In this document: positions 766 to 31,850 of the stretch, piece after piece | Layout: each line of letters begins with the position of its first letter | How positions within the stretch are numbered: position 1 is the stretch's first letter | Source of the DNA: Escherichia coli | Lineage (GTDB): Bacteria; Pseudomonadota; Gammaproteobacteria; Enterobacterales; Enterobacteriaceae | Strand: one strand, 5' to 3' | NCBI RefSeq assembly: GCF_003334305.1 | Contig: NZ_QOWS01000009.1 | DNA: 64,000 bases | Translations under genes and position numbers: made by a program | Notes under the pieces: generated by a model | What the model was told of the DNA's origin: nothing | Databases searched by the model: none | The model's input: the letters and a program-made list of their open reading frames with translations, nothing else

Positions 766-2169
766 GTGTCACTTTCGCTTTGGCAGCAGTGTCTTGCCCG
801 ATTGCAGGATGAGTTACCAGCCACAGAATTCAGTATGTGGATACGCCCATTGCAGGCGGAACTGAGCGATAACACGCTGGCCCTGTACGCGCCAAACCGT
901 TTTGTCCTCGATTGGGTACGGGACAAGTACCTTAATAATATCAATGGACTGCTAACCAGTTTCTGCGGAGCGGATGCCCCACAGCTGCGTTTTGAAGTCG
1001 GCACCAAACCGGTGACGCAAACGCCACAAGCGGCAGTGACGAGCAACGTCGCGGCCCCTGCACAGGTGGCGCAAACGCAGCCGCAACGTGCTGCGCCTTC
1101 TACGCGCTCAGGTTGGGATAACGTCCCGGCCCCGGCAGAACCGACCTATCGTTCTAACGTAAACGTCAAACACACGTTTGATAACTTCGTCGAAGGTAAA
1201 TCTAACCAACTGGCGCGCGCGGCGGCTCGCCAGGTGGCAGATAACCCTGGCGGTGCCTATAACCCGTTGTTCCTTTATGGCGGCACGGGTCTGGGTAAAA
1301 CTCACCTGCTGCATGCGGTGGGTAACGGCATTATGGCGCGCAAGCCGAATGCCAAAGTGGTTTATATGCACTCCGAGCGCTTTGTTCAGGACATGGTTAA
1401 AGCCCTGCAAAACAACGCGATCGAAGAGTTTAAACGCTACTACCGTTCCGTAGATGCACTGCTGATCGACGATATTCAGTTTTTTGCTAATAAAGAACGA
1501 TCTCAGGAAGAGTTTTTCCACACCTTCAACGCCCTGCTGGAAGGTAATCAACAGATCATTCTCACCTCGGATCGCTATCCGAAAGAGATCAACGGCGTTG
1601 AGGATCGTTTGAAATCCCGCTTCGGTTGGGGACTGACTGTGGCGATCGAACCGCCAGAGCTGGAAACCCGCGTGGCGATCCTGATGAAAAAGGCCGACGA
1701 AAACGACATTCGTTTGCCGGGCGAAGTGGCGTTCTTTATCGCCAAGCGTCTACGATCTAACGTACGTGAGCTGGAAGGGGCGCTGAACCGCGTCATTGCC
1801 AATGCCAACTTTACCGGACGGGCGATCACCATCGACTTCGTGCGTGAGGCGCTGCGCGACTTGCTGGCATTGCAGGAAAAACTGGTCACCATCGACAATA
1901 TTCAGAAGACGGTGGCGGAGTACTACAAGATCAAAGTCGCGGATCTCCTTTCCAAGCGTCGATCCCGCTCGGTGGCGCGTCCGCGCCAGATGGCGATGGC
2001 GCTGGCGAAAGAGCTGACTAACCACAGTCTGCCGGAGATTGGCGATGCGTTTGGTGGTCGTGACCACACGACGGTGCTTCATGCCTGCCGTAAGATCGAG
2101 CAGTTGCGTGAAGAGAGCCACGATATCAAAGAAGATTTTTCAAATTTAATCAGAACATTGTCATCGTAA
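766..2169 (+). CDS. dnaA: Chromosomal replication initiator DnaA (GTG start, 467 aa)
   Basis: Track ORF 754..2169; protein from [13 protein letters not shown] matches E. coli DnaA; AAA+ Walker [11 protein letters not shown]; start moved to the internal GTG. Confidence 0.95.
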
Positions 2170-6808: not shown

Positions 6809-6912
6809 CGTGCCTGATGCGCTACGCTTATCAGGCCTACGAAAATCTTGCAATGTATTGAATTTTCATGATTTTGTAGGCCGGATAAGGCGTTCACGCC
6901 GCATCCGGCAAG
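6809..6912. repeat. REP/BIME-type extragenic palindromic repeats downstream of gyrB
   Basis: Two REP-like palindromes (gcctgatgcgctacgcttatcaggcctac and gtaggccggataaggcgttcacgccgcatccggc) in inverted orientation. Confidence 0.7.
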
Positions 6913-16970: not shown

Positions 16971-17071
16971 TACATCGTAGCCGATGAGGACGCGCCTGAT
17001 GGGTGTTCTGGCTACCTGACCTGTCCATTGTGGAAGGTCTTACATTCTCGCTGATTTCAGGAGCTATGATT

Positions 17072-17485
17072 ATGCGTAACTTTGATTTATCCCCGCTTTA
17101 CCGTTCTGCTATTGGATTTGACCGTTTGTTTAACCACTTAGAAAACAACCAGAGCCAGAGTAATGGCGGCTACCCTCCGTATAACGTTGAACTGGTAGAC
17201 GAAAACCATTACCGCATTGCTATCGCTGTGGCTGGTTTTGCTGAGAGCGAACTGGAAATTACCGCCCAGGATAATCTGCTGGTGGTGAAAGGTGCTCACG
17301 CCGACGAACAAAAAGAGCGCACCTATCTGTACCAGGGCATCGCTGAACGCAACTTTGAACGCAAATTCCAGTTAGCTGAGAACATTCATGTTCGTGGCGC
17401 TAACCTGGTAAATGGTTTGCTGTATATCGATCTCGAACGCGTGATTCCGGAAGCGAAAAAACCGCGCCGTATCGAAATCAACTAA
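17072..17485 (+). CDS. ibpA: Small heat-shock protein IbpA
   Basis: 137 aa from [20 protein letters not shown]; alpha-crystallin domain. Confidence 0.9.
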
Positions 17486-30574: not shown

Positions 30575-30763
30575 TATCACGGATGCTTTTATAAAAATAA
30601 TTAGAATAAGTCACTACGCATTCCCATAAATGCGGGAGAGGAATCTATCACATTGATGAATGTTAGCCAGATATACGCCAGGAATGGGGAATTGTTTAGC
30701 GGCAGAATATGTAAACAAAAGCGGCAATAAATGTTGCCGGGAGGGATTACGTGCGAACTGTAA

Positions 30764-30861
30764 CCCTCTCCCCAAAGGGGCGAGGGGGAAACCACCGTTC
30801 CCTTTCAGAAAATGAGCTAAACATTGCACGGGACGGTCCCCTCGCCCCTTTGGGGAGAGGG
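30764..30861. repeat. Inverted-repeat element: 24-bp perfect arms separated by about 50 bp
   Basis: ccctctccccaaaggggcgagggg (30764-30787) is the exact reverse complement of cccctcgcccctttggggagaggg (30838-30861). Confidence 0.7.
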
Positions 30862-30944
30862 CTAGGGTGAGGGGCACAGGCAGCGCAGGTGCAAACATTC
30901 TGCTGGTAGAAGAAGCCCCCAACTCCAACCCGCACGCTAAATAT

Positions 30945-30974
30945 AAAAGGGGAGCGGTTACCCGCTCCCCTTTG
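30945..30974 (-). terminator. Rho-independent terminator of tisAB (bidirectional hairpin)
   Basis: aaaaggggagcgg-tta-cccgctcccctttt about 20 nt downstream of the tisB stop. Confidence 0.7.
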
Positions 30975-30992
30975 GTGCGACTTGAATCTGAA

Positions 30993-31082
30993 TTACTTCA
31001 GGTATTTCAGAACAGCATCAAGCAGTTGCAGTGCTGCAACAATGAGTTTGAGGATAAGAATGGCGATATCCACCAGGCTCAT
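30993..31082 (-). CDS. tisB: SOS-induced type I toxin TisB (29-aa membrane peptide)
   Basis: Minus-strand translation MSLVDIAILILKLIVAALQLLDAVLKYLK with AGGAG SD; too short for the ORF track. Confidence 0.85.
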   Translation of the reverse strand: MSLVDIAILILKLIVAALQLLDAVLKYLK

Positions 31083-31338
31083 ACGCGTCTCCTGTGGTTC
31101 AGGAGCACTGCCAGCTGACGTACCTTTCCGCTGCCTGTTGCCAGCTGTTGTGCACGCGGTATCTTAAGGAGAAACGTTGTGCTTGTTGACATAACACAGT
31201 GTGCTCACGCGGGGTTAAGGCGCTGACGGCACCACCCGTTTCAGCCAGGACTTAGTGCGCCGGGTAACGATGCGGCCCCCGCATAACACATTGCGTACAG
31301 TGATATTATAGAAGTTTACTGTATAAATAAACAGTAAT

Positions 31339-31354
31339 ATTTGGACAAAACGCA
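31339..31354. promoter_or_regulatory. LexA box (SOS operator) between the divergent tisAB and istR promoters
   Basis: CTGTATAAATAAACAG fits CTG-N10-CAG; a perfect TATAAT -10 for the leftward tisAB promoter lies about 10 bp away on the minus strand. Confidence 0.75.
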
Positions 31355-31442
31355 AACTGTGATCGATACTCAACTATGCCCTAAATACGTCAAAATTCGT
31401 GCCGAAATTGCGCGTTCTGCGCGGAACACGTATACTTTCAGT

Positions 31443-31518
31443 GTTGACATAATACAGTGTGCTTTGCGGTTACCAGCCGCAGGCGGCTGATGAAACCTCG
31501 CTCCGGCGGGGTTTTTTG
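31443..31518 (+). ncRNA. istR: IstR-1 antitoxin sRNA (longer IstR-2 isoform would start upstream, near 31370-31380)
   Basis: About 75-nt unit ending in an intrinsic terminator (GC-rich stem plus tttttt at 31512-31517); its 5' 20 nt ttgacataatacagtgtgct is near-identical to 31189-31208 in the tisAB leader, so the two RNAs are complementary; TATACT -10 at about 31432. Confidence 0.6.
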
Positions 31519-31646
31519 TTACCTGCAATTCAGTACAAAACGTGATCAGCCCCTCAATTTTCCCTTGCTGAAAAATTTTCCATTGTCTCCCCTGTAAAGC
31601 TGTGCTTGTATAAATATTGTTAAACACAAAACCAACAAGGTCCCCA

Positions 31647-31745
31647 ATGACTACTTCCATGTTCAACGCAAAACTACTACCAACTGCGCTATCCGCCGCA
31701 GTGGTCGTCGTGCGTGTGGTGGTGGTCGTCGGCAATGCGCCGTAG
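31647..31745 (+). CDS. ivbL: ilvB operon leader peptide (Val/Leu-rich)
   Basis: MTTSMFNAKLLPTAPSAAVVVVRVVVVVGNAP, 32 aa; located by hand. Confidence 0.85.
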   Translation: MTTSMFNAKLLPTALSAAVVVVRVVVVVGNAP

Positions 31746-31769
31746 GGACTGGAACAACACACGATTCCA

Positions 31770-31806
31770 AAACCCCGCCGGCGCAAACCGGGCGGGGTTT
31801 TTCGTT
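31770..31806 (+). terminator. ilvBN attenuator terminator
   Basis: aaaaccccgccggcgcaaaccgggcggggttttt hairpin plus T-run between ivbL and ilvB. Confidence 0.75.
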
Positions 31807-31850
31807 TAAGCACCTCCCGGAAAGTCGGCCCAGAAGAAAAGGACTGGAGC

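Follow-up and report, generated by a model that had tools for sequence, protein, structure and literature searches.

The closest described system to the locus reported here is the tisAB/istR-1 module (ysdAB/istR) of Escherichia coli K-12, reported by Vogel et al. 2004 and Darfeuille et al. 2007 (both cited through PMC4147584 and PMC6690012). In K-12, LexA controls tisAB and a longer small RNA, IstR-2, which contains IstR-1, and the promoter of IstR-1 itself is constitutive and LexA-independent (PMC2826370). SOS induction and LexA binding have been shown for the K-12 locus, whose box is identical to the one found here (PMC2826370; PMC2577331). The tisAB transcript is 359 nt long (PMC2577331) and occurs in three forms under the +1/+42/+106 scheme (PMC6690012). 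Its complementarity with istR extends over 21 nt (PMC4147584), and both antisense repression and cleavage of the duplex by RNase III have been shown with K-12 RNAs (PMC6690012).

We find that the region 30940-31518 of the window, by which we mean the whole 64-kb stretch of DNA that was analysed, is almost certainly tisAB/istR, a type I toxin-antitoxin locus of the E. coli chromosome, and judging from its sequence it is intact and apparently functional. The gene order in the window is emrD, ysdE, tisB/istR, ivbL-ilvBN. A 701-nt query from the locus matches many complete E. coli genomes at 100% identity (e.g. strain 042 and LSN03-016011/A), and in the identical genomes RefSeq places tisB at the same spot, between emrD-ysdE and ivbL-ilvBN. 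The published promoter hexamers, the Shine-Dalgarno motif and the 22-nt antisense sequence are all found in the window with consistent spacing. Together with NCBIfam and Rfam matches above their cut-offs, these results confirm the identification as tisB/istR-1 made in an earlier note on this DNA, and no finding speaks against it. The span of 30993-31518 given there does hold these elements, but the module reaches further, to the tisAB terminator at ~30940.

The locus occupies the same chromosomal site as in K-12, with the same gene order, and the two modules are ~99% identical. They share the LexA box, the promoter hexamers, the Shine-Dalgarno sequence, the 21-nt duplex with its wobble and the terminators. 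An alignment with the K-12 derivative TG1 shows six single-base differences within 30940-31518 (Table 1), and both copies of the duplex sequence are identical in the window and TG1. The changes at 31486 and 31491, which fall in IstR, look structure-neutral in the predicted fold. The locus is already known, the Ser2 variant of the toxin included, and the module allele found here is the one carried by most natural E. coli. The value of the present description lies in annotation only: it documents that the best-characterised of the chromosomal type I toxin-antitoxin and persister modules is intact here, and it advances no open question. RefSeq lists tisB in the identical genomes and omits istR, tisA and the LexA box; the coordinates of these three given here complete the map of the locus.

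The neighbourhood of the module holds several other elements. A long hairpin element lies at 30756-30870, between ysdE and the tisAB terminator, with arms of 27 nt each (30761-30787 and 30838-30864) that are 96% complementary and separated by 50 nt. It is a dispersed intergenic palindromic repeat, found at a median of 3 and a maximum of 8 places per E. coli genome, with a full-length copy in 1499 of 5426 genomes. At this site, upstream of the terminator, K-12 has a REP sequence, whereas the window has this different palindromic repeat. Another hairpin, followed by a T-run, is found just 3' of ivbL (~31771-31800). Weak Rfam matches to microRNAs and sRNAs at 30756-30870 and 31760-31828 were rejected, as they score far under the gathering thresholds; the first three lie on the palindromic repeat and are spurious, and the other two lie on the hairpin after ivbL. 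Farther away, four RNA features exceed their Rfam gathering scores (Table 1), among them selC. Beside selC there is no G+C anomaly in the window, and since the next ORFs after selC encode 479 and 772 aa, it seems that no large island is inserted there, unlike in strain LSN03-016011/A.

Table 1. Features of the tisAB/istR locus, its surroundings in the window, and single-base differences from K-12
Feature	Position	Strand	Description and basis
tisB CDS	30993..31082	-	MSLVDIAILILKLIVAALQLLDAVLKYLK, 29 aa, Ser2 allele; ORF list, NCBIfam, RefSeq
tisB Shine-Dalgarno	31088..31093	-	AGGAGA; motif named in PMC11264685
tisA leader ORF	31079..31192	-	37 codons; ORF list; AUG at 31190-31192, within the IstR-1 target
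IstR-1 target (ribosome standby site in the tisAB leader)	31185..31205	-	tisB Shine-Dalgarno sequence lies ~92 nt downstream
Published 22-nt antisense sequence	31184-31205	-	AGCACACTGTGTTATGTCAACA, verbatim in the window; PMC2577331
tisAB promoter -10	31305..31310	-	TATAAT; hexamer named in PMC11264685, Table 1
tisAB primary transcript (putative)	30940..31298	-	from -10 position, terminator and published 359-nt length
tisAB mRNA ends (putative)	~31298; ~31257; ~31193		+1; +42; +106, RNase III cut
tisAB intrinsic terminator	30946..30973	-	12-bp G+C-rich stem, then T-rich tail; terminator scan, mRNA fold
LexA (SOS) box	31317..31336	.	TACTGTATAAATAAACAGTA; 18/20 against consensus TACTG(TA)5CAGTA
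istR-2 promoter	31342..31370	+	-35 TGGACA, 17-nt spacer, -10 GATACT; promoter scan; hexamers per PMC11264685
IstR-2	31378..31517	+	~140 nt, LexA-controlled, includes all of IstR-1; putative 5' end from -10 position; Rfam istR
istR-1 promoter	31408..31436	+	constitutive; -35 TTGCGC, 17-nt spacer, -10 TATACT; hexamers per PMC11264685
IstR-1 antitoxin sRNA	31443..31517	+	~75 nt; antisense 5' tail 31443-31463, two stem-loops; Rfam, fold, terminator scan
IstR terminator stem	31492-31514	+	followed by U run to ~31517
ysdE	30656-30730	+	24 aa; coordinates transferred from RefSeq annotation of an identical genome
ivbL, ilvBN leader peptide	31647-31745	+	32 aa; NCBIfam 78 bits
AsdA (antisense of dnaA mRNA)	1276-1356	-	Rfam above gathering score
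ES036 (CssrF)	6833-6875	-	Rfam above gathering score
ROSE_2 thermosensor	17007-17078	+	upstream of ibpA; Rfam above gathering score
tRNA-Sec (selC)	48321-48411	-	Rfam above gathering score
Difference from K-12	30960		in tisAB terminator loop
Difference from K-12	31078		TisB N2S
Difference from K-12	31165		tisA E10K
Difference from K-12	31380		just within the putative IstR-2 5' end
Difference from K-12	31486	+	G for A; stem 1 U-A becomes U-G
Difference from K-12	31491	+	T for C; linker between the two IstR stem-loops

The TisB toxin and its second residue

The minus-strand ORF, seen when 30700-31800 was read on both strands, encodes a 29-aa hydrophobic peptide, as the earlier note had proposed: 22 of its 29 residues are hydrophobic, and over its full length (residues 1-29 of 29) it scores above the cut-offs of both NCBIfam equivalog models for TisB (NF011340, 69.9 bits, cut-off 53; TIGR04459, 61.5 bits, cut-off 38). 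Public databases hold the exact peptide of the window under the name TisB. Residue 2 is Ser (minus-strand codon AGC, with C at 31078), as in strain LSN03-016011/A, whereas the K-12 derivative TG1 has Asn; the two alleles differ because of C versus T at 31078. TG1 thus confirms Asn for the K-12 peptide, as given in the earlier note. The difference is a strain variant, as that note had suggested it may be, with Ser2 as the dominant natural allele.

The part of tisB covered by a 61-mer is present in 4359 of 5426 complete E. coli genomes. The Ser2 61-mer of the window has an identical match in 3289 of these 4359 carriers, and the Asn2 61-mer of K-12 in 998. Ser2 has been described as the consensus: 85% of tis/istR loci have it, as do laboratory strains of the B lineage (PMC11264685). 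Compared with this TisB-N2S consensus allele (PMC11264685, mSystems 2024), the peptide of the window is identical and we found no difference. TisB-N2S is toxic, slightly more so than the K-12 allele at low induction, and survival of ciprofloxacin is the same (PMC11264685). In the 90% cluster to which this peptide belongs, the named members from Citrobacter and Salmonella also begin with MS, which suggests that Ser2 is the ancestral state of TisB.

SOS control, transcripts and the antisense pairing

To assess the LexA box, we compared the 20-mer with shuffled sequences, and none of them reached its agreement of 18 of 20 with the consensus. The core of the box, CTGTATAAATAAACAG (31319-31334), is the sole CTGT-N8-ACAG within the 64-kb window, although a motif as loose as these 8 bases is no rarity in random sequence (at least one occurrence in 46 of 100 shuffles). 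The box covers the position expected for the tisAB -35 hexamer, and the distance to the next promoter element downstream is 6 bp on the tisAB side (-10) and 5 bp on the istR-2 side (-35). Its CTGT and ACAG half-sites are invariant in 17/17 aligned sequences. A LexA box shared between the divergent promoters, as previously claimed, is thus found for tisAB and istR-2. For istR-1 the label is misleading, because IstR-1 uses its own LexA-independent promoter, ~75-100 bp past the box.

The small RNA is matched by the Rfam istR model (RF01400) at 31388-31517 on the plus strand, along its full length (model 1-130 of 130), with 149.1 bits (gathering score 45, E = 3.6e-32). The predicted fold of IstR-1 (-31.9 kcal/mol, z = -3.5) leaves the first 12 nt free and then forms two stem-loops.

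A repeat search shows that TTGACATAATACAGTGTGCT at 31444-31463 reappears with one difference at 31186-31205, where chance would give 0.02 matches per window and where two matches occur in 0 of 100 shuffles. One extra match at the 5' end (G31443/G31185) extends the repeat to 21 nt (31443-31463 and 31185-31205). Both copies lie on the plus strand and the transcripts run in opposite directions, so that the sRNA and the tisAB RNA are complementary. The single difference (T31453 against C31195) is a U-G wobble in RNA, and all 21 of the 21 positions pair, with an energy of -33.5 kcal/mol. The repeat and the complementarity described in the earlier note are therefore real; the site, however, is 3 nt away from the 31189-31208 given there, and the complementarity of about 20 nt with one mismatch becomes one of 21 nt, the supposed mismatch being the wobble.

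Against the tisAB mRNA, the 21-nt tail of IstR-1 reaches -35.6 kcal/mol, ~9 standard deviations past 1000 shuffled tails (-13.9 +/- 2.3, best -22.9). In the 64-kb window, searched on both strands, no other target better than -22.8 was found for the tail except istR's own antisense strand. The putative +106 cut, at 31193, falls within the duplex. We also considered whether the similarity between istR and the tisAB leader extends beyond the repeat, and rejected this, since the flanks align no better than shuffled sequences (233/2000 and 1423/2000 score as high). A full-length duplex of -76 kcal/mol was likewise discarded as an artefact, because that calculation ignores intramolecular structure.

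The published length of 359 nt fits a tisAB transcript from 31298 to ~30940, where transcription probably stops. When the +1 mRNA is folded in silico, its nt 3-22 are predicted to pair with ~nt 85-105 and to mask half of the IstR-1 target, as the published model requires. The tisB Shine-Dalgarno sequence and AUG are predicted to be paired (unpaired probability 0.09-0.15), the Shine-Dalgarno sequence in all three forms of the mRNA (0.11-0.15). For the target, thermodynamic prediction gives an unpaired probability of 0.39 for the +1 mRNA, which rises to 0.47 for the +42 mRNA, and would thus reproduce the published +1 to +42 accessibility switch only weakly. With so small a difference (0.39 vs 0.47) we reject the prediction as in-silico proof of the switch, and we take the switch from the published experiments. 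The tisAB RNA has been reported to contain antisense stretches of 20 nt and 16 nt against the 3' ends of uxaA and dinD (PMC2577331); both are unchanged in the window, at 31254-31273 and 31013-31028 on the minus strand.

Conservation among related genomes and rival readings

A degenerate DNA pattern for the TisB core, applied to species-representative genomes, identified 15 loci in Escherichia and Citrobacter; with the same pattern and in the same genomes, no Salmonella locus was found. For each of these loci, a divergent istR scores above the Rfam threshold beside tisAB (15/15), with its own IstR-1 promoter as in the window, and tisB and the duplex are also present in all of them. The alignment shows that the LexA half-sites, the istR-1 -10, the target and the tail are conserved, and that the adjacent leader sequence has diverged or been deleted. 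Across the loci, 20-21 pairs of the duplex are kept. The wobble position is C-G in every Citrobacter locus and U-G in Escherichia. At duplex position 7, three Citrobacter loci (L005, L008 and L017) have changed from A to G in both tail and target, from an A-U to a G-C pair, and in two others (L004 and L011) only the target has changed, which gives an A-C mismatch and destroys the tisA AUG. This covariation is not significant (5 distinct haplotypes, one compensated pair, 190 of 500 shuffles scoring as high) and was rejected as independent proof of the duplex, so that the case for the duplex rests on conservation, chance statistics and the experiments with K-12 RNAs.

The locus is not universal within the species: tisB is missing in 1067 of 5426 complete E. 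coli genomes (~20%), a presence/absence polymorphism, and since these genomes lack the locus, tisB/istR is dispensable. In strain MP1 (L018), the gap between ysdE and ivbL is 245 bp, with nothing annotated inside. If Ser2 is ancestral and the G-U wobble is specific to Escherichia, natural E. coli modules might differ in tuning from that of K-12, in that their toxin would be more potent and their duplex a little weaker; we consider such a difference unlikely. Its Ser2 half is already published, and its wobble half, if true, would amount to no more than a small quantitative refinement.

An arrangement like that of hok/mok/sok can be imagined, in which tisA is translated, its translation is required for that of tisB, and IstR-1 acts by covering the tisA start. 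The tisA AUG (31190-31192) does lie within the 31185-31205 duplex, its stop codon overlaps with the start of tisB (31079-31082), and the 37-codon frame is kept in 4 of 5 related Escherichia loci and in K-12. Beyond these the frame is not kept, however. Of the 15 related loci, 5 lack the tisA start codon and 11 have a disrupted frame (the two groups overlap): the start reads ACG in five Citrobacter loci, nine Citrobacter loci carry a frameshifting 32-nt deletion, and a further frameshift is found in L010. In contrast, tisB, the target site and istR stay intact in every locus concerned. Moreover, no NCBIfam family matches tisA, and tisA has been described as untranslated (PMC2826370). We therefore regard translational coupling through tisA as highly improbable, and tisA is probably not a gene. 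Blocking of a standby site by IstR-1 remains the reading that we prefer for the leader.

It could also be supposed that the operative antitoxin is IstR-2, whose SOS induction goes through the LexA box that it has in common with tisAB, and that toxin and antitoxin are induced together. Its promoter abuts the box, and the whole of IstR-1, antisense tail included, lies within IstR-2. Against this, IstR-2 has been reported without control of TisB production and IstR-1 as LexA-independent (PMC2826370; PMC11264685), the tail region is partly paired in the predicted IstR-2 fold, and IstR-1 has its own conserved promoter, whose -10 TATACT is invariant in 17/17 aligned sequences. There is very little chance that IstR-2 fills this role, and we keep IstR-1 as the antitoxin. 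The chance that the 20-nt repeat is a coincidence, or a purely historical duplication with no regulatory role, is close to nil. In favour of such a reading, the similarity is not significant beyond 21-22 nt and the covariation is statistically weak, but the expectation of 0.02 matches per window and the duplex energy far past that of the shuffled tails argue against it. Both copies are conserved in two genera while the flanking leader has diverged or been deleted, and the interaction was shown directly on the nearly identical K-12 sequence (PMC6690012; PMC4147584). We therefore retain the repeat as the site where IstR-1 pairs with the tisAB mRNA.

Proposed mechanism and comparison with related modules

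All sequence elements of the established SOS-induced persister toxin module are found here at the expected spacing, with a LexA box of 18/20, and this description of the locus in the earlier note holds. For the source strain, transcription, processing, cleavage and toxicity are taken from the literature or inferred. The mechanism given below follows PMC6690012 and PMC4147584 for the standby site, S1 and RNase III, and PMC2826370 for regulation by LexA and IstR-1. LexA bound at 31317-31336 would repress both the minus-strand tisAB promoter and the divergent istR-2 promoter. Upon DNA damage LexA would be removed and the ~359-nt tisAB mRNA made, whose +1 primary form is expected to be translationally inert. 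Removal of the first 41 nt would then expose a single-stranded standby site, with the structured tisB ribosome-binding site ~100 nt downstream of it, and 30S subunits would load at the standby site with the help of protein S1 before relocating to the tisB start. The product, a 29-aa amphipathic helix, would enter the inner membrane, and the resulting collapse of proton motive force and ATP would lead to dormancy and persistence. IstR-1, made constitutively from its own promoter, would block the loading of ribosomes by placing its 5' tail on the standby site, and cleavage of the IstR-1/tisAB duplex by RNase III would leave the inert +106 mRNA. This implies that toxin would be made only when tisAB mRNA molecules outnumber those of IstR-1.

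Other type I modules resemble this locus to different degrees. Similar to tisB/istR, the dinQ/agrB, zorO/orzO and shoB/ohsC modules combine a small hydrophobic toxin, a long processed 5' UTR and a divergent sRNA, but their peptide and RNA sequences are unrelated to those of tisB/istR. To our knowledge, tisB is the only one of the tisB, dinQ, zorO and shoB modules with a demonstrated S1-dependent standby site. The hok/mok/sok system is also a type I toxin silenced by an antisense RNA, with cutting of the duplex by RNase III. In hok/sok, however, antisense RNA and target overlap in cis, and the RNA stops the translation of mok, a leader ORF that is translated. In tisB/istR there is no overlap between the antitoxin gene and its target, and the leader ORF, tisA, has not been conserved.
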